Positions 8,072 through 27,958 of a stretch of DNA of 64,000 nucleotides are shown here, piece after piece (position 1 is the first letter of the stretch; each line of letters opens with the position of its first letter). Location of the stretch: positions 109,253-173,252 of the forward strand of contig DAVZXP010000005.1 in the NCBI GenBank assembly GCA_052298855.1, in the 5' to 3' direction. The position numbers and the translations under genes are program-made. This DNA comes from Candidatus Fimenecus sp. (GTDB lineage Bacteria > Bacillota > Clostridia > Oscillospirales > Acutalibacteraceae). The notes under the pieces are model-generated. The model made no database searches, was not told the DNA's origin, and worked only from the letters and a program-made list of their open reading frames with translations.

Positions 8072-8701
8072 TTACTTTGTGCCGAAAATTCTGTCGCCTG
8101 CGTCGCCGAGACCGGGAACGATATACTTATGCTCGTTGAGACATTCATCACAAGCAGCGCAGAAGATTTCAACGTCGGGATGAGCGAGTGAAAGAGCCTC
8201 AATTCCCTCGGGAGCTGCAATTATGCACATAAATTTGATTGATTTCGGATTATATGCCTTAATCTGATTTATAGCGTCGATAGCAGAACCGCCTGTTGCA
8301 AGCATCGGGTCGATAACGAAAACCTCACGCTGTGAAATATCCGACGGAAGCTTGCAGTAATAAGGAACGGGAAGTGCTGTTTCGGGGTCACGGTACATAC
8401 CGATATGACCAACCTTTGCCGACGGTACAAGTGAAAGAACGCCGTCAAGCATACCCGTACCTGCACGGAGAATCGGTACGAAAGCAAGCTTTTTACCTGC
8501 GATTACTCTTGCCTTTGCAACCGCTACGGGTGTTTCGACATCGACTTCCTCAAGCGGAAGATCTCTTGTTGCCTCATAGCAAAGGAGAGTAGCAATTTCG
8601 GAAATAAGTGCTCTGAATTCCTTAGAACCCGTGTTTTTATCCCTTAAAATGCTAAGCTTATGCTGAATAAGCGGATGATTTGTAATTGTAATGTTTGCCA
8701 T
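8072..8701 (-). CDS. upp: uracil phosphoribosyltransferase
   Basis: Typical Upp sequence ([20 protein letters not shown] loop DPMLATGGS). The start is moved to the ATG 9 nt after GGAGGA; the ORF itself extends to 8737. Confidence 0.93.
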
Positions 8702-8771
8702 TTTCATTTCCTCCATATACTTCTTTTCATTTACCACAATAATTATATACCACTAAAAATTTAATTACAAG

Positions 8772-9215
8772 TTATTTTTGAGCGTTTTCAATATCCTTGA
8801 GCTGATCTATTCTTCTCTGGTGTCTGCCGCCCTCAAACTCGGTGTTCAGGAACACCTCGACAAGCTCGAGTGCAAGACCTGCGCCGACAACTCTGCCGCC
8901 CATGCAAAGCACATTTGCGTCATTGTGAAGTCTTGTATATTTTGCGCTGAAATAATCCGAACAGCAAGCGGCTCTGATACCGTTTACCTTGTTTGCCGCC
9001 ATAGAAATACCGATTCCCGTGCCGCAACAAAGAATACCCTTATTGCCCTCGCCCGAAACGATTTTGTCGCAAGTCTTTTTGGCAATAAGCGCATAGTCAA
9101 CCGAGTCAGCGGAATACGTACCGCAATCCTCGTACTCTATCCCCTTTTCGTCAAGATATTTTTTGATGGACTCTTTAAGCTCAAATCCACCGTGGTCAGC
9201 TCCCAAATAAAGCAT
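8772..9215 (-). CDS. rpiB: ribose-5-phosphate isomerase B
   Basis: 147 aa with GADHGG and CGTGIGISMAANK; LacAB/RpiB family. Confidence 0.92.
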   Translation of the reverse strand: MLYLGADHGGFELKESIKKYLDEKGIEYEDCGTYSADSVDYALIAKKTCDKIVSGEGNKGILCCGTGIGISMAANKVNGIRAACCSDYFSAKYTRLHNDANVLCMGGRVVGAGLALELVEVFLNTEFEGGRHQRRIDQLKDIENAQK

Positions 9216-9218
9216 AAT

Positions 9219-9920
9219 TTATTCTCCTTTGTTTTTTAATTTATTGTTAAGCTCTCTCTGCGCCTGCGGCAGCCTCAAATAAACCGGTAAAAGTTCATTC
9301 GCACCGACAGTTTTTTCGCCCGAGAGAATTTTATCATACGCAATAAGCGCAACGCTCGACGCCTTCGGGAAACGTCTTTGCTCATCAGCCAACACAGCCT
9401 TTGAAAGCTCGCCCGACAACCTTTCAAAGCACATTTTTGCGCCGTCGCCTGCGAAAATAACAGGCTTGTCAAGTCCTTTGAGTTTTTCGAGCAATTCGTC
9501 AATCAAAATTGCCTCGTCGGGGAACAGCCTCTCCCCTTTCAAAAACGAAGCCGTATAAACCTGATTGCATCTTGCGTCCATAACCGCACACACAACCGCA
9601 TTTTCGTCCCTAAACGGATAAGCGATAGCCTCCAGCGACGACACGGCAAAGCACGGTGTAGCAAAGCTGTCTGCAAGTCCTTTTGCCGCCGCAACGCCTA
9701 TCCTCACGCCCGTAAACGAGCCGGGACCTGCGCTGACGCTGATGACATCGACATCACAAACAGCCGTATTTGTATTTTTAAGCACACTCTCAACCATAGG
9801 CATAAGAGTTTGCGAGTGAGTAAGCCCCGTGTTGAGGAAGCTCTCTGCAATAAGCTTTCCGTCCTCAATCAAAGCCGCACCTGCGCTCAAGGATGAACAT
9901 TCAAGCGATAAAATTTTCAT
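9219..9920 (-). CDS. tsaB: tRNA t6A37 threonylcarbamoyltransferase complex subunit TsaB
   Basis: YeaZ-like with GPGSFTGVRIG. Overlaps tsaE by 4 nt. Confidence 0.88.
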   Translation of the reverse strand: MKILSLECSSLSAGAALIEDGKLIAESFLNTGLTHSQTLMPMVESVLKNTNTAVCDVDVISVSAGPGSFTGVRIGVAAAKGLADSFATPCFAVSSLEAIAYPFRDENAVVCAVMDARCNQVYTASFLKGERLFPDEAILIDELLEKLKGLDKPVIFAGDGAKMCFERLSGELSKAVLADEQRRFPKASSVALIAYDKILSGEKTVGANELLPVYLRLPQAQRELNNKLKNKGE

Positions 9921-10348
9921 ATTTCAAAATCACATCCGTCAACGGTAATTATTCGGTCGTCGTCGCCCTCACCCTTTTCGATAGTAACCTTAATTGTGTT
10001 ATCGGGCAAAGCGTTTTCGATATTTTCACTCCACTCGACGCAAAGCACGCTTCCCATATCCATATAATCAAAAAAGCCTGTCGAATAGAGGTCGTCCCAG
10101 GAAGAAACACGGTACATATCAAAATGACAGAGCTCCGAGTTTTTTCCGTAAACATTTACAATCGCAAAGGTCGGACTGCTGACATCACATTCAATGCCCA
10201 TTCCCTTTGCAACACCCGTGGTAAATGCGGTTTTGCCCATGCCGAGTCCGCCGTAAAATGCAATTACGGTACCCTTTTTAACCTGCTTTCCGAATTTCTC
10301 GGCAAGCGCCACGGTCTCTTCATAATTTTTCGTTTTGAAAACCTGCAT
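9917..10348 (-). CDS. tsaE: tRNA t6A37 ATPase subunit TsaE
   Basis: Walker A GGLGMGKT, SPTFAIVN and HFDMYR. The start is set at MQVFKTKNY; the ORF extends to 10423. Confidence 0.88.
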   Translation of the reverse strand: MQVFKTKNYEETVALAEKFGKQVKKGTVIAFYGGLGMGKTAFTTGVAKGMGIECDVSSPTFAIVNVYGKNSELCHFDMYRVSSWDDLYSTGFFDYMDMGSVLCVEWSENIENALPDNTIKVTIEKGEGDDDRIITVDGCDFEI

Positions 10349-10471
10349 TATATCACCGATAGATATTGTACCACTAAAAGCCGTTTGCGTAAATAGTTTT
10401 GCTTGAAATCGGTGCGATAACATACTATAATATATTTGATATGTTAAGATTTAAGGCTAAACACGGCAGGA

Positions 10472-10791
10472 AATAGTGTGAAAATCACACTATTCACATA
10501 ATTATAATGCCCTCAAAATTTGCCTTTGGCAAAATTTTGAGATGGCAGAAATCACCATCACGCCTGTTTAGGCAACACGGGTTGAAACGGTGAATTTTAA
10601 TAAACTATTTGTTGCCTAAAAGGCTATGGTGAATAGTGTGAAAATCACACTATTCACATAATTATAATGCCCTCAAAATTTGCCTTTGGCAAAATTTTGA
10701 GATGGCAGAAATCACCATCACGCCTGTTTAGGCAACACGGGTTGAAACGGTGAATTTTAATAAACTATTTGTTGCCTAAAAGGCTATGGTG
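10472..10791. repeat. perfect tandem duplication, 2 x 160 bp
   Basis: 10472-10631 is identical base-for-base to 10632-10791. Each unit contains a 23-bp palindrome (aatagtgtgaaaatcacactatt), a TATAAT and two further long hairpins. Confidence 0.97.
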
Positions 10792-11964
10792 ATTAACATG
10801 AAAAAGCTTTTTAATACAATTTCAACATTCTTAAAAGAAACCGATTTATACCTACTCACCATGTGCTTTGTGGCCTCGGTGTTCGGTATAATTATGGTTA
10901 CGAGTGCGACAAAATACACGCTCACAGACGGTCAAATTCTCTCAAGAGAAACGATAATTATGATCGTTGCCGTTGCGGTGGGTATTCTGTCGGCGATTTT
11001 AATTTCAATGCTTGACTATCAGGTGTTCACGAAGCTATGGCCCGTCATTGCGGTCGTATGCATTGTGCTTATGCTGCTGCTTTTCAAATTCGGCACAGGC
11101 CCGAGCGCAAGAAGCGACGCAAGAACTTGGCTTAAATTCGGCCCGATTTCATTGCAGCCGTCCGAGCTTGTTAAAATCGGCTTTATCATCACCTTCAGCG
11201 TTCACATTGAAAAGCTCAAGGATAAGCTTAATCACATTTTGAGCATTTTACAGCTCGGCGTTCACGCAATTATACCGATTGCCCTCGTTGCTCTTACGGG
11301 CGATATGGGCTCGTCGCTTGTTTTCATCTTCATAACGGCGGCTATGCTCTTTGTTGCAGGCGTGCATTGGGGTTATTTCGCAGGTGCGTTTGCATTTATA
11401 ATCGCTATCACTCCGCTTGCTTGGATTTATGTCCTCAAACAGCTTCAAAGGGACAGATTTTTGGCACTTATCTACCCCGACTTATACAGCGATATTATCT
11501 ATCAGCAAAAGTGCGGAATGAGCGCATTGTCCTCGGGCGGCTTTGCGGGTCAAGGTCTTTTCAAGGGCGCATATACTCAGGCAGGAGTTATCCCCGAGAG
11601 CAAAAATGATATGATTTTTACCGTTATCGGCGAAGAACTGGGCTTTATAGGTTGTACCGTTGCCTTGCTTTTGCTTACGCTTATCGCATTGCGCTGCATA
11701 TCGGTCGGCAAAAAGTCAAGAGAGCAATCAACAGACCTTATCTGCTGCGGTATTGCGGCTATGATTGCAAGCCAGATGATTATCAATGTCGGAATGTGCC
11801 TTATGGTATTGCCCGTTATCGGAATTACGCTTCCGTTCTTCAGCGCAGGCGGCTCGTCAAACCTTTGTATATATTTGGGAATAGGTCTTGTGTTGAGCAT
11901 TTACCGCCACAATTGCGAGCGTGAAACGGTTAATATCAAGGTCTACGATTCATTGAGAAAATAA
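10786..11964 (+). CDS. SEDS-family peptidoglycan glycosyltransferase (FtsW/RodA/SpoVE)
   Basis: 10-TM profile with PESKNDMIFTVIGEELGFIG. The start is ambiguous: ATG 10786 lies inside the repeat, and ATG 10798 is the alternative. Confidence 0.88.
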   Translation: MVINMKKLFNTISTFLKETDLYLLTMCFVASVFGIIMVTSATKYTLTDGQILSRETIIMIVAVAVGILSAILISMLDYQVFTKLWPVIAVVCIVLMLLLFKFGTGPSARSDARTWLKFGPISLQPSELVKIGFIITFSVHIEKLKDKLNHILSILQLGVHAIIPIALVALTGDMGSSLVFIFITAAMLFVAGVHWGYFAGAFAFIIAITPLAWIYVLKQLQRDRFLALIYPDLYSDIIYQQKCGMSALSSGGFAGQGLFKGAYTQAGVIPESKNDMIFTVIGEELGFIGCTVALLLLTLIALRCISVGKKSREQSTDLICCGIAAMIASQMIINVGMCLMVLPVIGITLPFFSAGGSSNLCIYLGIGLVLSIYRHNCERETVNIKVYDSLRK

Positions 11965-13171: not shown

Positions 13172-13206
13172 AAAAGACCTCCCGTTATTAAAACGAGAGG
13201 TCTTTT
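13172..13206. terminator. bidirectional hairpin terminator
   Basis: aaaagacctc...gagaggtctttt, between the GNAT gene and the tRNA-Pro 3' fragment. Confidence 0.7.
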
Positions 13207-13250
13207 GGTCAGAGTGAGGTGACTCGAACACCCGGCATCTTGCTCCCAAA
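13206..13250 (-). pseudogene. 3' half of a tRNA-Pro(TGG) gene (anticodon loop to CCA), candidate attR side
   Basis: The reverse complement reads TTTGGGA-GCAAG-ATGCC-GGGTG-TTCGAGT-CACCT-CACTCTG-A-CCA. No D-arm or 5' acceptor strand lies upstream. Confidence 0.75.
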
Positions 13251-13612
13251 CGAACCTATGAAGACACTTTCCGCTAAAAATAGCTTTTTCTGCCCCTTTC
13301 CGCTCGGAAAACCGTGTTCTTCGGCGCTCCCCATTCCACTGTTTCCGAGTGCTCCGAAACGGTAGGTGGTCTGTTATGTGGTCAACAGCAATTTCCGCAG
13401 AATAATACACACTACACGCCTCTCGTTATCATGCGAGAGGCGATTGCTTTTTATACGGTTATTATAACTCTGAACAACCCCTGATTCAAGTCAAAATTTG
13501 CACCGCAGTAGACAAAGAAAAAGAGGATTACGAAAATGCTCGGAGAAAATAGAAAACCTGCAACAAAAAGTTGAGAAATAATGATATCGCAGTATTTTTA
13601 TGCCGAAAACAG

Positions 13613-14006: not shown

Positions 14007-16115
14007 ATGGGCAACAAAAATACGAATCTTCAAGTAGCCAAAAGGGCGAAAGATGATGAATTCTATACTACATATGAAACCGTAGAGCAAGAAGTGTTGC
14101 ATTATGTAGATCAGTTTAAAAATAAAACAGTATTATGTAATTGCGACGATCCGTTTGAATCAAACTTCTGTAGATTTTTTCTAAGAAACTTTAATGTTCT
14201 AAAACTCAAAAGGTTGATTTGCACATCATATTATTCTTCAAAAGTAATTGCTACGAAGTTGAGCTTTGATAATCAAGTCAAAGATTCCTTTGATCGTAAA
14301 AATGGATATGTCCTTGATGTCACCAAGTTTTGCAATGATAATGCCGAGCTTTCAGATGAGTATATAACTAACTTCTTACTATCACATAAGGTCATTAAAA
14401 TGTTAAATGGGGATGGAGATTTCAGGAGTAGTGAATGCATTGAATATTTAAAAGAATCTGATATAGTAGTCACAAATCCACCGTTCTCACTATTCAAAGA
14501 AATTGTTTCAGAGATAATCAAATACGGAAAAAGTTTCTTGCTCATCGGCAACCAAAATGCATTGACTTATAAAGAGATATTTCCTCTGATTCAAAATAAC
14601 GAGGTATGGACAGGATATCAATTCGGAGAAATGAAATTCAGAGTACCTCAATCATCTGAACCTCGTGCCACACGCTACTGGGTAGATGAAACAGGGCAGA
14701 AATGGCGCAGCTTGGGGAATGCTATGTGGCTAACAAACTTGGATAATGATAGACGTCACGAAGAATTGCCTTTAACTAAAAAATACAGCCCACAAGATCA
14801 TCCTAAGTATGATACATACGATGCGATCCATGTAAAATCAATAACCGAGATTCCTTATGACTATGCAGGTGTTATGGGAGTTCCAATAACTATTGTAAAT
14901 AAGTATAACAGCGAACAGTTCGAGATTGTAGGTGAAGCAAATCACGGATCTGATAATGAGTTCGATTTATTTAAACCTACCATCAACGGAAAAGAAGTAT
15001 TCAAGAGAATCTTAATTCGCAACAAGAGGTTAATTAAAATGCCAACTAAAGAGTTTAGAATATTAGACCTATTCAGTGGTGCGGGTGGAATGTCTTATGG
15101 AATGGAAAAGAATGCACACTTTAAAACAGAAGTAGCACTGGATTATAATCCGCAGGCACTCGAAACATTCAAATATAATATGCCTAATGCAGAGGTTGTT
15201 ACGGGCGATATCACAGATGACAGGGTTAAAAAGCAGCTCATTGAACTGAGCAAAAAGCGAAAGGTCAATATGATAATTGGCGGTCCCCCGTGTCAAGGAT
15301 TCTCGCTAAAAGGCAAAAAGCTTGGATTAGATGATCCGAGGAACTTTCTGTTCAATGAATATCTCAACATTGTAAGTATATTAAATCCTGAGGTGTTCGT
15401 AATCGAAAATGTTAAGGCACTCCTGTCCACTTCCGCTGGATGGTTCAAAAATCAGATAATAGAGAAAGTTAGACGAATGGGATATCATGTGGAATACGGT
15501 GTGCTTACAGCTTCAGACTTTGGTGTTCCTCAGGCAAGACAAAGAGCGATTTTTATATGCTCTAAAAATAAACCCGTAACACTTCCGAAACCTACATGCC
15601 ATGAAATGGTAACAGTTAGAGATGCTATCTATGATTTGGCATACTTGAATTCTGGCGAGGGCGAATTCGAGCAAGATTATGTTACAGAGCCTACAAGTGA
15701 TTACCAAAAAGTAATGCGACAAGGTAGTAAGAAGCTGTATAACCACAAGGCATCTAACCATGCAGAAATAGCAATCAGAAAATTACAAATGATTCCGCCT
15801 GAATGCGGAAAAGAACATTTACCGCAAGAGTTGACAGGCAATCAACAGTTTAGCGGAACATGGGGAAGATTGAAATGGGATGCTGTTTCTCCCACGATAG
15901 ACACAAGATTTGATGCATCCTCAAACGGTACGAATAATCATCCATTCTTGCATAGAGCTATCACGCCTCGCGAAGCAGCGAGAATACAATCGTTTGATGA
16001 TAAGTTCGTATTTATCGGAGCAAAACTATATATTCGTCAACAAATCGGAAATGCAGTGCCTCCCCTTATGGCAAAGGCGATTGCAGATCAAATTTACGAC
16101 ATACTGAGTAAATAA
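14007..16115 (+). CDS. bifunctional DNA methyltransferase: N-terminal EcoRI-family N6-adenine MTase fused to a C-terminal C5-cytosine MTase
   Basis: N-terminal half has DDEFYT and VVTNPPFS. C-terminal half has LFSGAGG (I), GGPPCQGFS (IV), ENVKAL (VI), QARQRAIFI (VIII) and GNAVPP (X). An in-frame AAGAGG-N9-ATG (15039) sits at the domain junction. Confidence 0.88.
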   Translation: MGNKNTNLQVAKRAKDDEFYTTYETVEQEVLHYVDQFKNKTVLCNCDDPFESNFCRFFLRNFNVLKLKRLICTSYYSSKVIATKLSFDNQVKDSFDRKNGYVLDVTKFCNDNAELSDEYITNFLLSHKVIKMLNGDGDFRSSECIEYLKESDIVVTNPPFSLFKEIVSEIIKYGKSFLLIGNQNALTYKEIFPLIQNNEVWTGYQFGEMKFRVPQSSEPRATRYWVDETGQKWRSLGNAMWLTNLDNDRRHEELPLTKKYSPQDHPKYDTYDAIHVKSITEIPYDYAGVMGVPITIVNKYNSEQFEIVGEANHGSDNEFDLFKPTINGKEVFKRILIRNKRLIKMPTKEFRILDLFSGAGGMSYGMEKNAHFKTEVALDYNPQALETFKYNMPNAEVVTGDITDDRVKKQLIELSKKRKVNMIIGGPPCQGFSLKGKKLGLDDPRNFLFNEYLNIVSILNPEVFVIENVKALLSTSAGWFKNQIIEKVRRMGYHVEYGVLTASDFGVPQARQRAIFICSKNKPVTLPKPTCHEMVTVRDAIYDLAYLNSGEGEFEQDYVTEPTSDYQKVMRQGSKKLYNHKASNHAEIAIRKLQMIPPECGKEHLPQELTGNQQFSGTWGRLKWDAVSPTIDTRFDASSNGTNNHPFLHRAITPREAARIQSFDDKFVFIGAKLYIRQQIGNAVPPLMAKAIADQIYDILSK

Positions 16116-16141: not shown

Positions 16142-17035
16142 ATGAATAACGAAATGGCATATTTGTTAGGAATGATAACAGGAAACGGTGCAGTTCAAAG
16201 AGGCCCTTCTGAAACCACCATTGTTATTGAGATTCCTCATAAAAAGTTAGAAACAGAGTTTAATAGAGATGTTGCTCTTTATGTAAAAGCAAGTATCACC
16301 GATATGAGGCAAGTGTTAGAGCCTGTATTAGGAACAAGCTTGGTGTTTAATCAAAATCCCAATGTTTCTTTTTTGTCGTTCAGAAAGAGAAACGAAGATT
16401 ACTTGATGAGAGAAATTATACGCTATATCGGCGGAGCTACGTCGGCGGATAATGTGAGAATCTCACCCGAAGTCTTTTCGTTTACGCTTGATGAAAGAAA
16501 ACAATTTATTCGTGGTTTTGCGGATGTAACTGGATACATTAGAAGAAGCAACTATTTCTTTGATAAAGAAGCTCACCGTGTTTATTTTGAAATTCCACAC
16601 AACTGGGGCTTGGTTGTCGATTTTTGTAACATGCTGAAAAGTGTGGATATTCCCGTGCAAAACATCGACTGGGCACATCCTAACATGAGAGATGGTAAGC
16701 TTGTAAAATACAATCAGGGAAACCATGATTTTTGGAAGAAAGAACATCAGGTTAAGGTTTGGGCAGTCGAATATGAGCCTATTGGTTTTGCAGTTATACA
16801 TAAGCAGGAGGCTTTGTCTGCTTTTGCTAATGAACATAGAGTTTGGTTGCAAGAACAAGGAAAGAATCCCGAAGATGTAACGCATAGATATTATTGGGAT
16901 TCAAATGGCAAGGTCAAGGCTAAACCTCGTCATCCTGGAGAAATGGATACATTCTTGCCTGCTGAAATCAGAGGCATACACTTTGATTCTTGGAAAGATA
17001 TTGCTAAAAAACTTGGATATAGCGAGGAGTCGTAA
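16142..17035 (+). CDS. hypothetical protein with two LAGLIDADG-like motifs (acidic residues substituted)
   Basis: YLLGMITGNG (aa 7-16) and FIRGFADVTG (aa 122-131) lie ~115 aa apart, and each is followed by beta-strand-like segments. The stop overlaps the next start (TAATG). Confidence 0.45.
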   Translation: MNNEMAYLLGMITGNGAVQRGPSETTIVIEIPHKKLETEFNRDVALYVKASITDMRQVLEPVLGTSLVFNQNPNVSFLSFRKRNEDYLMREIIRYIGGATSADNVRISPEVFSFTLDERKQFIRGFADVTGYIRRSNYFFDKEAHRVYFEIPHNWGLVVDFCNMLKSVDIPVQNIDWAHPNMRDGKLVKYNQGNHDFWKKEHQVKVWAVEYEPIGFAVIHKQEALSAFANEHRVWLQEQGKNPEDVTHRYYWDSNGKVKAKPRHPGEMDTFLPAEIRGIHFDSWKDIAKKLGYSEES

Positions 17036-17511
17036 TGTTAGAGGAAAAATTATATGAACCTATGAGAGCTTGGCTCGAACAGTATCTTCGCGATAAATAT
17101 AAAAATGCGGAGATTATAACTGTTGATTCACATAGTGAGAGATTAGATAGAGTACTAGCTAAGTATGATGTGGTAAACGAGATGGCCAATGATGTTGATA
17201 TTCAGATCGATGTGCTTGGCATTGTAAAACAACGAAATGCAGTTAAACTGTTTTTTATAGAAGCCAAAAAGACAAGGTTAACATTGCGAGATTTGGGACA
17301 ATTATGGGCTTATTGCAAATTAGTGGATCCCGAAGAAGCATTTTTGTTAACTTCATCTGATTTGGGAAGCTTGAATAAGCTGCTAAATAGCTTTGGTAGA
17401 GAAGATCTCCTTGATTTTGGCGAAGGGAAGAAAATCAAAAAGATGCGAGTGGGCAAATGGGATGTTGTGAAAAACAGCCCCGCCTATCACTCGCTTATCC
17501 CAAAGATATAA
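17035..17511 (+). CDS. PD-(D/E)xK nuclease-fold protein (restriction endonuclease-like)
   Basis: 158 aa with the pattern E8...D59 (IDVLG)...E76-A-K78 (FFIEAKK). Translationally coupled to the upstream ORF. Confidence 0.55.
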   Translation: MLEEKLYEPMRAWLEQYLRDKYKNAEIITVDSHSERLDRVLAKYDVVNEMANDVDIQIDVLGIVKQRNAVKLFFIEAKKTRLTLRDLGQLWAYCKLVDPEEAFLLTSSDLGSLNKLLNSFGREDLLDFGEGKKIKKMRVGKWDVVKNSPAYHSLIPKI

Positions 17512-17535
17512 TTGTTAATAAAAAGGAGAAAAACT

Positions 17536-18066
17536 ATGGACAATAACTATTGGAAAAACGCATATCAGAACACATGGGATGAATCATCTAAAAGAGAAAA
17601 TTTTATGGTTGACTGGATTAAAGACAACGCTGAGCTTACAGCAGAAATCATTGGGCTTGGTGCTGGTACAAGTGATTTTATAGATGGCAGTGCAAGTGAA
17701 AATGGGTATGAAAAAGGAGATGCGGATCTACATATCATTAATACAAACATATACATTGAAGTCACAGGCCCTTTAACAAAAAGTGTATCTGTAAATAGTG
17801 CTTTGTGGTTTAGACCCGACAAATTTGAAAATGCCATAAGAAACATGACAAACGGACATGACACATTCTTTGCTCATCACTGCCCATCAGGAGATTTGTG
17901 GCGAATAATACATATTGATGATAAACTTGCTCAAAGATATCAAAGACATGAATTTCGTATAGTCACACCTTGGATCAGAGGCCGTCAGGAAAGATATGTT
18001 GAAATACCAAGCAATGATCTTTGCATTAAATCGTTGGAGTATTTAAAAGATTATTTGATAGGATAA
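17536..18066 (+). CDS. hypothetical protein, possible second nuclease-like subunit
   Basis: AAGGAG RBS before ATG 17536. GDADLHII...IYIEVTGP loosely resembles a D...ExK core. Last gene of the MTase operon. Confidence 0.35.
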   Translation: MDNNYWKNAYQNTWDESSKRENFMVDWIKDNAELTAEIIGLGAGTSDFIDGSASENGYEKGDADLHIINTNIYIEVTGPLTKSVSVNSALWFRPDKFENAIRNMTNGHDTFFAHHCPSGDLWRIIHIDDKLAQRYQRHEFRIVTPWIRGRQERYVEIPSNDLCIKSLEYLKDYLIG

Positions 18067-18241: not shown

Positions 18242-18532
18242 ATGAAAAAGTTTTTAGCTCAGTTTGAAGAATTTTGTCAAACACCCGGAATAGAATCAGG
18301 AAAGGCCCGCTCGTATGCAAATGCAATAGCATATCTGTGTGACTATTTAAACATCTCAACAATAGATGCAAAAACTATTAGCAATATAAGAAGTATAGAA
18401 AATGATGTCAACGATAAGAATAGTGCATTATATAAAGACCTATTATTGTTTTTGTCAAATCGAGGACAAAAATCATATTTAACCAAAGGGTATATAAAAG
18501 CCGCACTAAAATACTTCTTTAAGTTTGTGTGA
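18242..18532 (+). CDS. hypothetical small protein
   Basis: AAGGAGAG RBS, then ATG 18242; 96 aa with no recognised motif. May itself be a fragment. Confidence 0.35.
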   Translation: MKKFLAQFEEFCQTPGIESGKARSYANAIAYLCDYLNISTIDAKTISNIRSIENDVNDKNSALYKDLLLFLSNRGQKSYLTKGYIKAALKYFFKFV

Positions 18533-18537
18533 AATAT

Positions 18538-18930
18538 ATGGTCGAAGTAGTAGCTGCACTGATCTGGAACAAAGATGGATTCATGATCTGCCAACGACCT
18601 GCGCACAAAGCGAGAGGACTCTTATGGGAGTTTGTTGGCGGTAAAGTCGAGCCCGGTGAGACGAAAGAACAGGCGCTCATCCGTGAGTGTCAGGAAGAAC
18701 TTGCAGTAACGCTGTCTGTTGGAGATGTTTTTATGGATGTAGTCCACGAATATCCTGACTTGACGGTACATCTGACACTGTTCAATGCTACTATTACCAA
18801 TGGTGTTCTACAGAAGTTGGAGCACAACAGCATCAAATGGATTGCGCCATGCGAAATCCCAAACTACAAATTCTGTCCGGCGGATGTAGAGATATTGAAA
18901 AAGATAACAGAGGTTTTTCGTGATGATTAA
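18538..18930 (+). CDS. NUDIX hydrolase, MutT/NudG-like (d)NTP pyrophosphohydrolase
   Basis: Nudix box GGKVEPGETKEQALIRECQEELAV; ~130 aa. Confidence 0.85.
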   Translation: MVEVVAALIWNKDGFMICQRPAHKARGLLWEFVGGKVEPGETKEQALIRECQEELAVTLSVGDVFMDVVHEYPDLTVHLTLFNATITNGVLQKLEHNSIKWIAPCEIPNYKFCPADVEILKKITEVFRDD

Positions 18931-19333
18931 GAATTTGGTGCATGATCCGATATTTCTTGCTGGAAAGTCGGAGACTGCGACAAAAGAAGATTTGCAGATC
19001 GCACAGGATCTGATTGATACGTTGATCACGCACAGAGACAGCTGCGTTGGTATGGCGGCAAATATGATCGGTGTCAAGAAACGTATCATCGCTTTTCTTG
19101 ATGAAAGTGGACGAACGCCTACATATACAGTGATGCTAAATCCGGAGGTTATTAAAAAAGACGGAGCTTATAACACTGAGGAGGGATGCCTTTCACAACT
19201 TTATGGTCATCGTAAATGCAAGTGCTATCAGACTATCAAAGTACAGTGGAAACGGCTGAATTTCAAACTCGTATCAAAACATTTATCGTCTGGTCCGCAC
19301 AAATTATCCAGCACTAAATTAATCATTGAATGA
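18920..19333 (+). pseudogene. def: peptide deformylase, decayed (frameshift, and HExxH destroyed)
   Basis: Motif 1 GMAANMIG and motif 2 EGCLS are present. After about 19250 the conserved C-terminus continues in another frame as ETAEFQTRIKTFIVWSAQIIQH-stop-INH-stop, so the Glu of HEIDH is a TAA codon. Confidence 0.6.
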
Positions 19334-19373
19334 AATATTAATATAAGCGAATTTATACTAAAGGAAATTCTTT

Positions 19374-20363
19374 ATGATAGAGTATACAGAAAACGAAAAA
19401 CAGTTAAATGGATATGATTTTATAGATTTGTTTTGTGGCATAGGTGGATTTCATTTAGCCTTGTCATCTTTGGGTGCTAACTGCGTATTTGCATCAGATA
19501 TTGATAAAGAAGCATGTAAGGTATATGAAACAAATTTTGGATTAAAGCCACATGGTGATATTACAAAAATAGCAGAAGAAAAAATACCCAAGCACGATAT
19601 TCTTTGTGCTGGTTTCCCTTGCCAACCTTTTAGTATTTCGGGAAATCAGCAAGGATTTGATGATGAGCAAGGGAGAGGGAAGTTGTTTTTCGACATCGTA
19701 AGAATTGCCAAATATCACAAACCTAAAGTGTTGATATTAGAAAATGTGAAGAATTTCGAAAAACACGATGGTGGAAAAACTATTAAAAGGGTAGAAAAAG
19801 AACTTAATGATATAGGATATACATTTTTTTCTGAAGTACTATGTGCATCAGATTTTGATGTGCCTCAACAGCGCAAAAGAATATATATAGTAGCATTTCG
19901 AAATGACTTGAATATTGATACATTTGAGTTCCCACAGGGGCTCAACAAATTTAAAGTATTGAAGGATGTTTTGATAACTAAAGCAGAAAACAAAATCAAA
20001 GGTAATTACTATATCGATAGAGAATACACAATTAAAAGTAACCCAAAACGAAAAGAGAATAAATTGATTAGAATTGGCGAGATAGGTCTGGGTCGCCAGG
20101 GAGAAAGAATTTATTCAATTAACGGTCAAGCCACAACGTTATCTTCACAAGGTGGAGGCTTGGGCGGAAAAACAGGACTGTATTTGATTCGAAAAAAAGT
20201 GCGCAAGCTATTTCCACGTGAATGTGCACGGGTAATGGGTTTTCCGGATAGTTTTAAATTGTCACATAGTCAGGAACAAAACTATAAGCAATTTGGAAAC
20301 AGTGTAGTTGTTGATGTTATTCAAGCTATAGTAAAAGAAGTTATTAAAAAAATCGAGGGATAA
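19374..20363 (+). CDS. DNA (cytosine-5)-methyltransferase
   Basis: Motifs LFCGIGG (I), GFPCQPFS (IV), ENVKNF (VI), QQRKRIYIV (VIII) and FGNSVVV (X). Confidence 0.93.
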   Translation: MIEYTENEKQLNGYDFIDLFCGIGGFHLALSSLGANCVFASDIDKEACKVYETNFGLKPHGDITKIAEEKIPKHDILCAGFPCQPFSISGNQQGFDDEQGRGKLFFDIVRIAKYHKPKVLILENVKNFEKHDGGKTIKRVEKELNDIGYTFFSEVLCASDFDVPQQRKRIYIVAFRNDLNIDTFEFPQGLNKFKVLKDVLITKAENKIKGNYYIDREYTIKSNPKRKENKLIRIGEIGLGRQGERIYSINGQATTLSSQGGGLGGKTGLYLIRKKVRKLFPRECARVMGFPDSFKLSHSQEQNYKQFGNSVVVDVIQAIVKEVIKKIEG

Positions 20364-20366
20364 ATT

Positions 20367-22493
20367 ATGGGAAGTAAAGCTTCGTTTAAATTAGCATATT
20401 CAGCGTTGAAAATGTTTGGAAAGCAACTTTATTCCAATGTCGGTGCCGCTATATCTGAGTTGGTTGCTAACGGGTTTGATGCCGGTGCTGATGATGTCTA
20501 TGTTGTAATAGATGCAAGAAACAAATCTGCTGCTACGGTAGAAATTTTAGACAATGGGTCAGGAATGTCTCCAGAACATATTGAAGAGAATTATGTAAAA
20601 ATTGGATATAACAAAAGAGAACATGAAAAAAATGCTGACACTGCTATGGGTCGAAAAGGAATAGGAAAATTGGCAGCTCTTTATATGTCAAATAAGTTTA
20701 TATTAGTTTCTAAGACGAAAAAAGACAAATGTTCTTCATGGGAATTGGATGTTACGAAAATCAAAAATGACGATGATGCGCCTGATTTGGTGCAAATAAC
20801 GGATGTAAATTTACAGCAATCACAATGCTTTGATATTTGGAATTCTCAAAAAACAGGGACTTTTATATATCTTGAAAATGTGGATTTAAGAGGGTTCGGT
20901 CAAAGAGGATTAGAGTCGATTCGCAAGAGATTATCAAACTATTTCTTGTTGGACGAACTTCGAAAAAATATTTATATTATGGTAATCCTTGATGATGAGA
21001 CTCCACGCGAATTCGTTAAAGTTGAGAAACAAATAGCCTTTAAGAATATGGTATGTATTTATGCATCTGATACAAGTCGTTTTGAAGATCTTAAAAGTAA
21101 TATATTTTCGATAGAGTATACCAACAAACTTAAACAAATTAAAGAATACGAGGAAACAACTACAATAAAAGAACTCGAATCAGCTAAAGATAATTTTAAT
21201 ATTTCTGGTGAGATTACCGTTGACGGTATAACAAAAAAGTACGTTTTATCGGGTTGGGTTGGAGTCCATTGCACAATTGATGAGGATAAAGCCAAAAAGA
21301 ATGACGATGCATATTTTAAAAGTACTTTTTATAATCCTAATCAGTTAAGGTTATACGTAAGAAACAAATTGGCAGTTGCTAATATGAGAGAATATCTTGG
21401 TATTAAGCAGGCCTTCGCAAACTATATCGAAGGTGAGGTTTCATTTGATATTCTTGATGACAATGATATGCCCGACATTGCAACGGCGGGACGGCAAGAC
21501 TACGACACTGCGGATCCGCGCTTTTTAAAATTATGTGAATTACTAAAAGTTATAGGCGATAGCCTTGTGAGGAGTAGACAAGCCTTAGCGGATAAACTAA
21601 AAGATGAAAGAAATGCGAGTGATATGAAAATCTCTACCGCCGCAAAGAAAAACTTTGCGGTTGGTTTTGCTCAGGCAGTGCATAGATTACCTATCACACA
21701 AGCAGACAAAAGCGAATTAATTAACACAACAGTAAATCAGTTAGAGGGAGATGTAGAAGCCAAGGGACAATATACTGTGTTTATTTCTCATTCCAGTCAA
21801 GATAAATTTCTATCGGATTTCTTTTATCACTATTTGGTAAAAAGAGGCTTCAATGGTGATATGAAAGACTTGGATAATTGTGAAGTTTTTTATTCAAGTG
21901 CCGGAATGGATAAAGCTTCTATGGAGAGTTTGGCGAGCACAATTAGAGATTTCTTAATTGCTAAAGATAACGATGTGCTTATGGTTACTTCCTCAGGGTA
22001 TAAAGACAGTGAGTTTTGTATGTTTGAGGGTGGTGCAGTATGGGCAACTAAAGCTGATAAACATAGATTGATTGCCATCGATTATGATACTATACCAAGT
22101 TTTTTGAAGAATGGTAGTCCAGAGATATGTTTTAGTGATACAGATAAAAACAGTTACCAGTTTAACGAGCAATTGTATGAAGATATATTAGCTGTGTTGA
22201 CACGTATAATGATTCATCTTAATCAAAATAGGATTGTAAGAGGAGAAAAGGAAATATCTATTCCTGAGAGACCAAACTTTCCAGACAAAGTTGAGCTCAA
22301 AAAGACAGGAAAGACTATTAAAGATTATATGGATCCTCTGATATTAGAATACTGGGATACCTATGTGTTGGATCAGGTTGATGATTACATAAATTACCGT
22401 GCAGGAAAAAAACTTTTGCAGAAAAAGCTTGAAGAAACAGAAAGGGAGTTTTGGGAAGAGTATAAATCCAAAAAGTTAGCTTTGGCTGAATAA
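20367..22493 (+). CDS. GHKL (HATPase_c_3, MORC/MutL-like) ATPase fused to a C-terminal TIR-like domain
   Basis: Bergerat-fold boxes ELVANGFDAGA, DNGSGM and GRKGIGKLA at the N-terminus. C-terminal region (~aa 470-620) reads VFISHSSQDK...VFYSS...VLMVTSS...SEFCMFEGG. The ATG lies 3 nt after the MTase stop. Confidence 0.7.
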   Translation: MGSKASFKLAYSALKMFGKQLYSNVGAAISELVANGFDAGADDVYVVIDARNKSAATVEILDNGSGMSPEHIEENYVKIGYNKREHEKNADTAMGRKGIGKLAALYMSNKFILVSKTKKDKCSSWELDVTKIKNDDDAPDLVQITDVNLQQSQCFDIWNSQKTGTFIYLENVDLRGFGQRGLESIRKRLSNYFLLDELRKNIYIMVILDDETPREFVKVEKQIAFKNMVCIYASDTSRFEDLKSNIFSIEYTNKLKQIKEYEETTTIKELESAKDNFNISGEITVDGITKKYVLSGWVGVHCTIDEDKAKKNDDAYFKSTFYNPNQLRLYVRNKLAVANMREYLGIKQAFANYIEGEVSFDILDDNDMPDIATAGRQDYDTADPRFLKLCELLKVIGDSLVRSRQALADKLKDERNASDMKISTAAKKNFAVGFAQAVHRLPITQADKSELINTTVNQLEGDVEAKGQYTVFISHSSQDKFLSDFFYHYLVKRGFNGDMKDLDNCEVFYSSAGMDKASMESLASTIRDFLIAKDNDVLMVTSSGYKDSEFCMFEGGAVWATKADKHRLIAIDYDTIPSFLKNGSPEICFSDTDKNSYQFNEQLYEDILAVLTRIMIHLNQNRIVRGEKEISIPERPNFPDKVELKKTGKTIKDYMDPLILEYWDTYVLDQVDDYINYRAGKKLLQKKLEETEREFWEEYKSKKLALAE

Positions 22494-24099: not shown

Positions 24100-24372
24100 C
24101 GGCAGTTTTACGGCTCGTCCGAAAACAAGCAGGAGAAAGCCGAGGGGTTGCACGGCAATCCCTCGGCGGCTCACAGCGGACGGCAACGCCGACCGCATAA
24201 GGCTTTGTGCGGCTTTTAAGAACGGTTATAAAAGCCTCAATTTAGGGGTTGCGGCGATAAAAACCTCGCTGATTTAGGGGTTGCGAATTTTACCGCAAAT
24301 TTAGCTGGATATTCCGCCATGTATGTGGTATTGTGTGTTCGGCTGGTGAGAGCCCTGCTAGGAGGTGATACC

Positions 24373-25548
24373 ATGGCAAAACGAAGACCGTCGAGAGACG
24401 GTATGGTGCGCAAGCGCGAAGACGGAAGATGGGAAGGCCGCATCGTTGTCGGTCACAAAAAGAACGGCGATCCGATTCACCGCTATGTGCTTGCCCGAAC
24501 ACAAAAGGAGTTAATCGTAAAGCTCCACGACTGCATCGAGATGTACCGCGATGCCGACCTCACCGAGGATTCGAATATGACGCTCGGCGAATGGCTCGAC
24601 CGATGGATCAATGAATATATGATCTTCACGATTCGTGAAAGCACGCTTGATTCTTACAAAGCGATGATTAAAAATCAAATCAAACCGTATCTCGGCGACA
24701 GACCTTTGTCGGCGCTGACCACGCAGGAGCTTCAAAAATTCTATAACACCGTCAAAAAGAAAGGTCGTGTGAAACCGGACAAGCTGCACGGCACAGAGCT
24801 TGCCGACAGCATGGTGCGCGGTATTCATATGATGCTGCACGAAGCACTCGATATGGCGGTGCGCCTACGGCTGATTGTTAAAAATCCAACGGTCGGCACA
24901 ACGATTCCCAAAAACAATTATCCGCCGAAGCAGATACTCAATGACGAACAGCTTGACAGATTTATGAAACGCATTAGGCAGGATGAGCGGTGGTACGATT
25001 TCTTCTACACCGAGCTGACCACAGGACTGCGGCGGGGTGAAATCTGCGGACTGAAGTGGGAGGACTTCGATGCGGAAAACGGAAAGCTGAAAGTGAGGCG
25101 CTCGGTTGCTAAAAGGAAAGGCGGCGGATTGAATATCGGCGAAACCAAAACCGAGACGGGAACGCGCACGATCGTCCTGCCGCCGAGCACTGCGGAACTT
25201 CTGCGGAAGCGAAAAGAAACGGCAGTCAGCGAATGGATATTCCCGAATATCTATGAGCCCGAAAAACCGATGCACCCCGACTATGCTTACCACCGATTAA
25301 AAACACTGTTAAAACAGGCGGAGCTTCCGCTGATTCGGTTCCACGATCTGCGCCACACCTTCGCCACTCACGCGCTGGCAGGCGGTGTGGATGCGAAAAC
25401 CCTGTCGGGAATTCTCGGGCATACCAACGCCAGCTTTACGCTGGACACCTACACCCATGTGACCACCGATATGCAGAGAAACGCTTCCGCTATCGTGGGG
25501 AGCTTTATGGATGAGATTATGCTTGAAGGAGATGATACCAATCGCTAA
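24373..25548 (+). CDS. tyrosine recombinase / phage-type integrase 1
   Basis: N-terminal AP2-like arm-binding motif (REDGRWEGRIVVG). Catalytic region has GLRRGE, HDLRHTFAT, LGH and the conserved Tyr in LDTYTHV. GGAGG RBS. Confidence 0.9.
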   Translation: MAKRRPSRDGMVRKREDGRWEGRIVVGHKKNGDPIHRYVLARTQKELIVKLHDCIEMYRDADLTEDSNMTLGEWLDRWINEYMIFTIRESTLDSYKAMIKNQIKPYLGDRPLSALTTQELQKFYNTVKKKGRVKPDKLHGTELADSMVRGIHMMLHEALDMAVRLRLIVKNPTVGTTIPKNNYPPKQILNDEQLDRFMKRIRQDERWYDFFYTELTTGLRRGEICGLKWEDFDAENGKLKVRRSVAKRKGGGLNIGETKTETGTRTIVLPPSTAELLRKRKETAVSEWIFPNIYEPEKPMHPDYAYHRLKTLLKQAELPLIRFHDLRHTFATHALAGGVDAKTLSGILGHTNASFTLDTYTHVTTDMQRNASAIVGSFMDEIMLEGDDTNR

Positions 25549-26962
25549 AAAAAGAAAAAATGGTGAGGGCACATTACGCCTGCGAAAAGACGGGCGGTGG
25601 GAAGGAAGAATTGTTGTCGGGTACAATGAGAAAAGCCTGCCTATTACAAAATGCGTAACGGCGAAAACAAAAACAGAATGTTCCACTAAGCTCGAAGCGC
25701 TGAAAGAACAGTACGGACGCTCTTCCGATAAAATTAAACCGGATATGCCGTTCGGGGATTGGATCGACTTCTGGTATCAGACATACTGCCGACACACACT
25801 CCGCATTACCACAAGAACCGACTACGAAAACCGCATTTACAATCATATCATTCCCGAAATCGGAAAAATTCCGCTGAACAGGCTGTCACAGTCGGATTTA
25901 CAGCAATTCTACGCAAAGGAAAAGACAGACGGAAGAAAACTGCACGCAAAAACCTACGGAAAGGGCCTTTCGGACAGAACGATAAGGGGGATACATGCCA
26001 ACTGCCGCACTGCTTTACAGCGGGCGGTGCAGGAGGGCTTAATTCGCACCAATCCCGCCGTCGGCTGTAAGCTGCCACCGAAGAAAGCACGGGAGATGCA
26101 GGTGCTCACGCAAAATGAAATTATCCGATTTCTGCATCAGGCAAAGGAAGAGGGATATTATGAGCTTTTTCTGCTGGAGCTCGGCACGGGAATGCGGCGC
26201 GGTGAAATATTGGCGCTCAAATGGAGCGACCTCAACTTCGCAACAGGAGAGCTTCGCATTGAACGGCAGGTATATATCATCAAGGCAGAGGTGATTATAT
26301 CAGCGCCGAAAACAAAAGCCTCGATACGCACCGTTATTCTGCCACCGTCACTCTTGAAAACCCTTGTGGCGTATAAGGAAACGGTGGATTCGGAATGGAT
26401 GTTTCCGTCACCGACGAATAACGGCAGACCGAGAAATCCGTCATCGGTTAGAAAACGGTTACAACTGATCTTGGAACGGGCGGGCTGTAAAAAGGTGCGC
26501 TTTCACGATCTGCGGCACACCTTTGCGACCATGGCGCTGGAGCACGGTATGGATGTGAAAACGCTCTCAGCAACTATAGGCCATGTGTCCTCGGCAACCA
26601 CGCTGGATATTTACAGCCATATCACCGATACTATGCAAAGGCAGGCGGCGGTGCATATCGACCGCAAAATCGGCGGTACAGACGCCCAAATGCCGACGGC
26701 TCAGCCGTCGGCAAGGAAAGATACCGTCCCAATCGAATTCACGCCGTACAAGCCGAAAATACGCAAACCCGGGACGGGCTGTGTCACGATGATAAACGAC
26801 CACCTGTATGAGGGACGGTACACTCCGACCAACGCCTACGGCAAGCGGGAAAGCCACAATATCTACGCGAAAACGCGCGAGGAATGCGAAGAAAAGCTCG
26901 CGGAAATGATTGTGCAGGTCAAGGCGCAAATCAAGGCGGAAAAAGAGAAAATGACAGGGTGA
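25511..26962 (+). CDS. tyrosine recombinase / phage-type integrase 2 with an extra C-terminal AP2-like segment
   Basis: RKDGRWEGRIVVG at the N-terminus. Catalytic region has GMRRGE, HDLRHTFAT, IGH and the conserved Tyr in LDIYSHI. The C-terminal ~90 aa repeat the arm-binding-like pattern (YEGRYTP...GKRESHNIYAKTREECEEKL). Overlaps int1 by 38 nt; the start is uncertain. Confidence 0.88.
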   Translation: MRLCLKEMIPIAKKRKNGEGTLRLRKDGRWEGRIVVGYNEKSLPITKCVTAKTKTECSTKLEALKEQYGRSSDKIKPDMPFGDWIDFWYQTYCRHTLRITTRTDYENRIYNHIIPEIGKIPLNRLSQSDLQQFYAKEKTDGRKLHAKTYGKGLSDRTIRGIHANCRTALQRAVQEGLIRTNPAVGCKLPPKKAREMQVLTQNEIIRFLHQAKEEGYYELFLLELGTGMRRGEILALKWSDLNFATGELRIERQVYIIKAEVIISAPKTKASIRTVILPPSLLKTLVAYKETVDSEWMFPSPTNNGRPRNPSSVRKRLQLILERAGCKKVRFHDLRHTFATMALEHGMDVKTLSATIGHVSSATTLDIYSHITDTMQRQAAVHIDRKIGGTDAQMPTAQPSARKDTVPIEFTPYKPKIRKPGTGCVTMINDHLYEGRYTPTNAYGKRESHNIYAKTREECEEKLAEMIVQVKAQIKAEKEKMTG

Positions 26963-27882: not shown

Positions 27883-27958
27883 TGGTCGGAGTGGCGAGGC
27901 TCAAACTCGCGGCCTCCGCATCCCAAATGCGGCGCGCTATCAACTGCGCTACACCCCG
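27883..27958 (-). tRNA. tRNA-Pro (anticodon TGG), intact, CCA encoded
   Basis: 76 nt: CGGGGTG-TA-GCGC-AGTTGATA-GCGC-G-CCGCA-TTTGGGA-TGCGG-AGGCC-GCGAG-TTTGAGC-CTCGC-CACTCCG-A-CCA. All four stems pair. Confidence 0.9.

Follow-up and report, generated by a model that had tools for sequence, protein, structure and literature searches.

A C5 cytosine methylase paired with a paraMORC4-type GHKL-TIR protein: a candidate restriction-modification-like module in which NAD+ depletion may replace DNA cutting

In a window of 64,000 nucleotides from Candidatus Fimenecus sp. (GenBank assembly GCA_052298855.1, contig DAVZXP010000005.1, positions 109,253 to 173,252; "the window" is this whole stretch, and positions are counted from its first letter), two adjacent genes on the plus strand encode an M.HhaI-like C5 DNA cytosine methyltransferase (19374..20363, 329 amino acids, aa) and a paraMORC4-type protein that joins a GHKL ATPase to a TIR domain (20367..22493, 708 aa; GHKL-TIR hereafter). 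We found that a C5 methylase and GHKL-TIR form a genuine, widespread two-gene module. With moderate confidence, we read it as a module resembling restriction-modification (R-M), in which the methylase would mark self DNA and the TIR domain would deplete nicotinamide adenine dinucleotide (NAD+) in place of DNA cutting. More tentatively, it may be an R-M system that does not restrict DNA, in which unmodified invader DNA would engage an ATP-dependent GHKL clamp and thereby a TIR NADase, the methylase possibly being the sequence-reading subunit. A preliminary description of the locus had regarded the architecture as a candidate undescribed one. Its overall interpretation is partly supported: the module is real but belongs to a family predicted in 2008, and its value lies in a readily testable link between methylation-based self-marking and NAD+ depletion by a TIR domain.

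Both open reading frames (ORFs) lie where the preliminary description had placed them, and all the motifs that it quoted were found in the two translations; the profile matches behind the domain assignments lie well outside chance. The methylase carries FCGIGG, GFPCQPFS, ENVKNF, QQRKRIYIV and GNSVVV, the complete catalytic set that had been claimed for a C5 methyltransferase, and matches Pfam DNA_methylase (E=4.5e-95) and TIGR00675 dcm (E=9.6e-89). Searched with phmmer, M.HhaI structures matched it at 6.7e-109 over residues 7-321. Because the methylase is such a close full-length relative of M.HhaI, both target-recognition loops included, its target is probably GCGC. GCGC avoidance was absent in the island that carries the pair and in its flanks (16 sites observed vs 12.5-17.9 expected). 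An AAGGA Shine-Dalgarno sequence precedes the methylase gene (19361-19365), and the junction to the second gene reads GGA TAA ATT ATG, with the stop codon at 20361-20363 and the start codon at 20367, which bears out the three-nucleotide spacing noted before. The Shine-Dalgarno sequence of GHKL-TIR, GAGGG, sits within the 3' end of the methylase gene. The two genes are co-transcribed and translationally coupled, and the tight coupling claimed for them holds also in that a C5 methylase and GHKL-TIR are strongly conserved neighbours across loci.

With one genome scanned per species, 59 loci were obtained, of which 55 had usable flanks and were informative. The 59 loci are distributed over Clostridia, Negativicutes, Bacilli, Campylobacterota, Actinomycetota, Spirochaetota, Bacteroidota, Deferribacterota and one methanogen metagenome-assembled genome, and span about seven phyla; more than 100 full-length GHKL-TIR relatives were found at 41-99% identity. 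Results showed that a C5 methylase directly adjoins the GHKL-TIR gene in 53 of the 55 informative loci, and the pairing first noticed in the window is thus syntenic in other genomes. The gap between the two genes is at most 128 bp in 52 loci and 454 bp in one. The methylase lies upstream on the same strand in 38 (often overlapping), divergent in 5, convergent in 5 and downstream on the same strand in 5. The commonest layout, with the methylase first and the genes overlapping or nearly abutting, is similar to that of many R-M operons. We also looked for a third conserved gene by clustering all neighbours within +/-5 kb, and none was found besides the C5 methylase.

This distribution bears on a rival explanation, that the two genes are independent of each other, the methylase being an orphan anti-restriction enzyme of mobile elements and GHKL-TIR a single-gene abortive infection (Abi) protein that senses a phage protein through an Hsp90-like module. 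Foldseek does place Hsp90 chaperones at the top of the list for the N-terminal half, SpbK works as a lone gene that responds to a phage (portal) protein, the island holds another, clearly orphan-type fused methylase, and two loci have no adjacent methylase. However, the genes adjoin in 53 of 55 loci, and do so over about seven phyla, in four orientations and with methylases of at least 7 lineages, which makes hitch-hiking hard to credit. In Listeria monocytogenes, moreover, a more distant Dcm and GHKL-TIR pair is a clean two-gene insertion between the housekeeping genes thiE and a glycosidase gene. We therefore hold two independent genes to be very unlikely. Campylobacter concisus and Veillonella parvula, like L. 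monocytogenes, have members of the GHKL-TIR family.

To describe the 708-aa protein, we used an AlphaFold2 (AF2) model built on a 43-sequence alignment (mean predicted local distance difference test, pLDDT, 85). The model has five parts, namely a GHKL domain, a beta-rich middle, long helices, a flavodoxin-like domain and a helical tail. The GHKL (Bergerat-fold) ATPase domain occupies residues ~8-200 (20388..20966) and is supported by invariant columns, by Foldseek and by a match to HATPase_c_3 (E=3.2e-23 over residues 26-164), which confirms the ATP-binding boxes recognised earlier: ELVANGFDAGA (residues 31-41), DNGSGM (62-67) and GRKGIGKLA (95-103). All the GHKL catalytic positions (E31, N35, D62xGxG66, G95-K101 and G164-T165) are invariant in the alignment. 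For the N-terminal and middle parts together, the best Foldseek alignments were to the N and M domains of the Hsp90 family (Hsp90/GRP94/TRAP1).

The middle, transducer-like domain (residues ~201-383, 20967..21515) is shared with the BbrUII/HgiDII family. It is beta-rich and confidently modelled, and a profile of residues 195-405 gave no meaningful match among the sequences of solved structures (Protein Data Bank, PDB). The motifs GW.G.H, YNPNQLR.YVR.K, NYIEGE..FD.LD and R376-Q377 are invariant in the family, and G296, W297, G299, K334, Y353, G356, D361, R376, Q377 and D383 are kept in an HgiDII-like protein of C. coli. A long helical, coiled-coil linker follows (residues 384-460, 21516..21746), formed by helices 384-439 and 445-460 as assigned with DSSP on the AF2 model; its sequence is variable across the family.

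The TIR domain covers residues ~469-600 (21771..22166), with the motifs VFISHSSQDK (471-480), VFYSS (507-511) and SEFCMFEGG (548-556). The PADLOC spbK model matched the protein at 2.7e-10, a TIR profile of the family found the SpbK structure 9phb at 4.8e-9, and Pfam TIR_2 matched 23 of 24 family members. When a separate model of residues 462-630 was submitted to Foldseek, the top matches were the TIR domains of RUN1, L6, MapSPARTA, TIR-STING, BtpA and MyD88 with probability 1.0, and non-TIR Rossmann-like folds started at rank 18 with much weaker scores. The TIR domain of the preliminary description is thus confirmed but not its position in the last ~150 aa, since a conserved helical tail of ~100 aa comes after it (residues 601-708, 22167..22490, from the AF2 model and the alignment). 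This tail consists of helices 601-625, 641-654 and 657-707 with the motifs HLN.N, DYMD and YW..YV; H617, L618, N619, N621, Y662, W663 and Y666 are invariant or nearly so in the 43 sequences, and the first of the three helices could be the counterpart of the additional alphaF helix in SpbK.

Within the TIR domain, the loop after strand 469-475 reads H475-S476-S477-Q478-D479, with H475 and D479 invariant, and a catalytic-type Glu, E554, lies in the helix C551-x-x-E554-G-G-A-x-W559. SpbK is an experimentally shown NADase with catalytic residue E192; S121, S122 and Y188 are among the residues modelled in contact with NAD+, and two alphaC residues, G194 and W197, form the interface of a two-stranded TIR assembly (PMC12847820). 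In the profile alignment, SpbK S121, S122, Y188, E192, G194 and W197 fall on S476, S477, F550, E554, G556 and W559. S477, E554, G556 and W559 are invariant in the family, position 550 is Phe or Tyr, and position 476 is Ser, Ala, Gly or Thr. The Glu that had been assigned to the C/WxxE position is E554, aligned with the catalytic Glu of SpbK. Among characterised TIRs, that of SpbK is the closest; because of this relationship, and because the catalytic Glu and the NAD+-contact positions are kept, the TIR domain of the window is plausibly a NADase. A profile of the TIR region retrieved 83 cluster representatives (50% identity clusters) at E<=1e-10. As almost every full-length representative has ~670-730 aa and carries the TIR at ~465-640, this form of TIR domain is essentially confined to the GHKL-TIR fusion.

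The architecture is already described. In 2008, Iyer, Abhiman and Aravind (Biol Direct) distinguished five 'paraMORC' families, GHKL+S5 ATPases in R-M neighbourhoods, of which paraMORC4 combines GHKL, S5 and, at the C-terminus, a TIR whose first strand is followed by a loop with a conserved Hx[ST]xD motif (PMC2292703). As the window protein has a GHKL domain, a C-terminal TIR, the motif H475-S-S-Q-D479 and a methylase neighbour, it fits paraMORC4 when compared by family description and motif, and the view that the pair was undescribed and not part of any named system had to be given up. The likeness extends from the intact N-terminal GHKL, the middle domain and the C-terminal TIR with its Hx[ST]xD loop to a location near genes of DNA methylases, mostly for cytosine, and to a patchy distribution marked by lateral mobility; the difference is that paraMORC4 was defined through comparative genomics alone, before TIR NADase activity was known. 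Listeria welshimeri appears in the species list of that study (PMC2292703), and the Listeria GHKL-TIR and Dcm pair is a distant relative. In the literature that was searched, neither a GHKL-TIR protein nor a paraMORC4 system was the subject of an experimental study.

The first half of the protein has a second known relative. NCBIfam NF050001 (BbrUII/HgiDII family restriction enzyme) matched residues 8-405 at E=1.6e-52 over model positions 4-358 of 659, with a score of 179 bits, below the curated cut-off of 550 for full-length membership. Two PADLOC REase_II models matched the GHKL and middle part only (1e-25 and 1e-19). Because PADLOC models for Type II restriction enzymes match the 708-aa protein, annotation tools may file the pair as an ordinary Type II R-M system, contrary to the expectation that defence finders would leave it uncalled. 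The earlier remark that no recognisable restriction endonuclease accompanies the methylase stands in one respect, as GHKL-TIR showed no match to a nuclease family in Pfam, PADLOC or NCBIfam, and fails in another, as residues 8-405 are homologous to the BbrUII/HgiDII family. Since the first ~400 residues are homologous to these enzymes and the C-terminal part is a TIR, GHKL-TIR is a restriction-enzyme chassis in which a TIR has taken the place of the C-terminal half.

On the Campylobacter coli plasmid pSH89 (L061, 4001-6031), an HgiDII-like GHKL protein adjoins a Dcm methylase, matches NF050001 end to end and shares the middle-domain motifs GW.G, K334, Y..GE..D and R376-Q377 with GHKL-TIR. It has no similarity to the TIR profile, and its C-terminal half does not align with that of the window protein. 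R.HgiDII has been described as a GHKL N-terminal domain followed by an unassigned C-terminal domain (Orlowski & Bujnicki 2008, PMC2441816). By eye, D...(V)ELK can be made out in the C-terminal half of the pSH89 protein, a pattern that recalls PD-(D/E)xK nucleases, and this pattern may assign the C-terminal domain of R.HgiDII. BbrUII/HgiDII enzymes and GHKL-TIR are thus alike in their first ~400 residues, in size (~660-710 aa) and in lying beside a DNA methylase gene, whereas the C-terminal ~300 residues are unrelated, the HgiDII type having a D...ELK domain and no TIR.

Considering this kinship, GHKL-TIR could be a genuine ATP-dependent restriction endonuclease, in which the TIR or the acidic middle region cuts unmethylated DNA and the pair is an unusual Type II-like R-M system. 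The chassis is common to the real restriction enzymes BbrUII and HgiDII, the middle domain holds the invariant acidic residues E357, D361, D364 and D370, and the CxxE motif (C551, E554) resembles a motif of plant TIRs. According to Yu et al. in 2022, this plant motif is reportedly needed for nuclease and 2',3'-cyclic nucleotide monophosphate (2',3'-cNMP) synthetase activity. Iyer et al. 2008 also proposed a possible nuclease role for this TIR, since other GHKL proteins are fused to nuclease domains (PMC2292703). On the contrary, the nearest characterised TIR, that of SpbK, is a NADase whose NAD+-contact residues are conserved here, and Pfam, NCBIfam and PADLOC gave no nuclease family match. 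The acidic residues of the middle domain also occur in HgiDII-like proteins, whose D...ELK motif lies in a separate C-terminal domain, and more likely belong to an ATPase transducer. We therefore consider DNA cutting by GHKL-TIR to be improbable.

Several observations weigh against an R-M-like module in which the TIR depletes NAD+. The authors of paraMORC4 guessed that its TIR acts as a nuclease or binds an allosteric ligand (PMC2292703). D158 of the SpbK BB-loop is not conserved, its counterpart in the window protein being M519, and the isolated TIR model has a pLDDT of 67, a moderate confidence, with the same region scoring higher in the full-length AF2 model (block means about 57-93). NADase activity, toxicity and phage protection of the pair are predictions. 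In addition, some loci lack an intact methylase beside GHKL-TIR. In C. concisus RMIT-O23 (L027, complete chromosome; 9560-9720) the methylase has a 1-nt deletion, and in a further locus (L047, 2830-4088) it is split, with GHKL-TIR intact in both; these two frameshifts may be real mutations or sequencing errors. Two loci (L025 and L035) have no methylase adjacent to GHKL-TIR. If these four cases are real, the methylase is not an obligatory antidote. As a side observation, GHKL-TIR in one of them, from Demequina sp. (L035, 8953-14393), stands between a PLDc_2 protein of the PLD family upstream and a GmrSD Type IV restriction enzyme downstream, a setting suggestive of a defence island with other partners.

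The last of these points concerns DNA specificity. The partner methylases fall into at least 7 lineages with less than 40% identity between lineages, and among the three largest, the methylases are 19-27% identical and the GHKL-TIR proteins 36-38%. A per-column comparison of the methylase-defined clades found no specificity-determining region, with at most 2 fixed differences per 20 residues. No DNA-specificity element is thus evident in the GHKL-TIR sequence, and no segment co-varies with the methylase lineage. Recognition might come from the partner methylase, in the manner of Type III systems, or else sensing may be independent of sequence.

This result can also be explained considering a guard, or a methylase that itself acts as the sensor. 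GHKL-TIR would bind the methylase and fire when the latter stalls on abundant unmodified sites, or when a phage anti-restriction factor disturbs it (S-adenosylmethionine depletion, a DNA mimic or a methylase inhibitor), in a PrrC-like manner or with specificity supplied by the methylase as in Type III systems. Such a guard would need no specificity-determining segment in GHKL-TIR despite at least 7 partner-methylase lineages, the translational coupling favours a complex of the two proteins, and PrrC/RloC-like roles have been proposed for paraMORC-HEPN fusions in R-M neighbourhoods (Anantharaman et al. 2013, PMC3710099). However, the orientation varies, with convergent or divergent genes in 10 loci, and the protein-protein interface is conjectural. 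HgiDII and BbrUII, with the same chassis, are sequence-specific enzymes, and a guard, too, sits badly with the loci where GHKL-TIR is intact and the methylase broken or missing. We regard this explanation as unlikely.

Returning to self-marking by the methylase and NAD+ depletion by the TIR, the sequences demonstrate the domain architecture, homology, residue conservation and synteny; methylation gating, DNA sensing, NADase activity and an abortive outcome are inferred, and the following course can be proposed. The methylase would modify host DNA, probably at GCGC for the copy in the window, and so keep GHKL-TIR silent. The GHKL module would act as an ATP-driven dimerising DNA clamp, as do MutL, MORC and HgiDII-type enzymes, and would engage DNA that lacks the modification, either reading the sequence itself or relying on recognition supplied by the partner methylase. 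Clustering on DNA might then bring the TIR domains into a head-to-tail, two-stranded assembly with a composite NADase site, as for SpbK. NAD+ would be hydrolysed and the invaded cell would arrest or die, blocking the spread of phage or plasmid in a SPARTA-like manner. The same logic could stabilise the integrative element that carries the pair.

This proposal is supported by effector swapping on the paraMORC chassis, as seen in the paraMORC3 nuclease and the HEPN fusions. VcSduA, a Shedu protein of paraMORC3 with GHKL and PD-(D/E)xK parts, was shown to be antiphage (PMC12137116), and fusions of paraMORC with HEPN (RNase) occur in R-M neighbourhoods (PMC3710099). Further support comes from the mobile-element context, with other methylases and a PADLOC defence candidate. 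In Companilactobacillus tucceti (L050, 9929-12003), GHKL-TIR is split over three ORFs beside an intact methylase, an order of decay that is expected for a toxic 'R' gene.

Among known systems, SpbK of Bacillus subtilis ICEBs1 is the closest in its effector, sharing the ISHSSKD-type loop, the S.YC..E.GA.W helix, the catalytic Glu and the alphaC Gly and Trp; it also lies on an integrative mobile element and acts by abortive infection through NAD+ hydrolysis (PMC12847820). Unlike GHKL-TIR, it is a protein of 266 aa whose small N-terminal domain recognises the portal protein of SPbeta, and it has neither a GHKL ATPase nor a methylase partner. SPARTA (short prokaryotic Argonaute, pAgo, with TIR-APAZ) likewise joins a nucleic-acid-recognising module to a TIR, and its TIR is among the top structural matches, but its recognition is by an RNA-guided Argonaute, self and non-self are not told apart by DNA methylation, and there is no ATPase. 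The SPARTA TIR NADase is activated by oligomerisation on invader DNA, and invaded cells die or arrest. VcSduA has in common the GHKL chassis with a C-terminal defence effector, and its phage protection needs the ATPase Glu; it differs in its PD-(D/E)xK (DUF4263) nuclease, in being a stand-alone gene with no methylase and in protecting directly rather than abortively. Compared with classical Type II R-M, the pair has the complete methyltransferase motif set, and its second protein has no endonuclease domain (PD-(D/E)xK, HNH, GIY-YIG, PLD and the like) by Pfam, PADLOC or NCBIfam. It does not fall in Thoeris, as the ThsB model gave E=0.0056 only and the sole conserved neighbour is a C5 methylase, nor in Mza, as MzaB scored 37 bits against a cut-off of 850 and no Z1/AIPR-type neighbours are present.

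If the proposal is true, methylation-based distinction of self from non-self, as in R-M, would be joined to cell suicide by NAD+ depletion, as in Thoeris, SPARTA, SpbK and DSR, two strategies that are usually treated apart. A restriction-enzyme chassis would be able to exchange its nuclease for a TIR, and some genes annotated as Type II R-M or as a bare "ATP-binding protein" would be abortive-infection systems. The hosts of the GHKL-TIR family include tractable, medically relevant bacteria, and the M.HhaI-like partner in the window, together with commercial M.HhaI and HhaI-type reagents, makes the hypothesis directly testable. The family would also offer a bacterial model for MORC-type GHKL ATPases that read DNA modification.

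The pair is cargo of an integrative element of ~14.7 kb at a tRNA-Pro gene. Its ends, at ~13196 and ~27960, were obtained by comparison with a contig (L063) that holds the element in a different genomic context, beside another integrase and an AbiEii toxin gene. The right end is the tRNA-Pro(TGG) gene (27883-27958, minus strand), and a degenerate copy of the 3' half of the tRNA lies at the left end (~13202-13256); a search for exact att repeats found chance-level 12-mers only. The pair stands in a stretch of low GC content (0.35-0.38 vs ~0.43-0.45 in the flanks), and the same element, with an identical GHKL-TIR protein, was found on 14 metagenome contigs.

The first half of the element contains, in order, an XRE-type helix-turn-helix (HTH) gene, a fused methylase, three ORFs, a Nudix gene and a short peptide-deformylase-like gene. 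The second half contains the HhaI-like methylase, GHKL-TIR, two small ORFs, an excisionase-like HTH_17 gene, an HTH_36 replication-initiator-like gene and two overlapping tyrosine integrase genes (24319-25548 and 25511-26962). The fused methylase (14007-16115, 702 aa) combines an M.EcoRI-like N6-adenine methylase with a C5 methylase, and its DNA is 73% identical to that of a phage methylase (PV036447.1). The three co-directional ORFs downstream of it (16142-18066; 297, 158 and 184 aa) had no match in Pfam, PADLOC, PHROGs or NCBIfam.

A prophage origin of the element was rejected, as the only PHROGs matches among the tested proteins were the integrases and the replication-initiator-like protein. 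The viral contigs of IMG/VR contained no relative of GHKL-TIR. The sole match in phage collections was the virome-derived MT835506.1 (L001), which has the element backbone in common (the peptide-deformylase-like gene, orf95/orf93 and HTH_36). In the slot of the methylase and GHKL-TIR (8427-10921), it carries two unrelated ORFs of 383 and 448 aa, with no match in Pfam or PADLOC. Because the same backbone holds two other ORFs there, the slot of the pair seems to be a cargo-exchange hotspot.

Upstream of the pair, the Nudix gene (18529-18930) encodes a NudG/MutT-like hydrolase (NCBIfam PRK10546, 4.5e-30) that is a full-length match to the PADLOC phage-defence candidate PDC-S07 (E=1.2e-44). Enzymes of the NudG type prefer 5-methyl-dCTP, a preference that would suit an island with three C5-methylase domains. 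The peptide-deformylase-like gene (18920-19333, 137 aa) overlaps the Nudix gene. It recurs near the pair in five other Clostridia loci (L002, L003, L004, L008 and L017), upstream or downstream and at varying positions.

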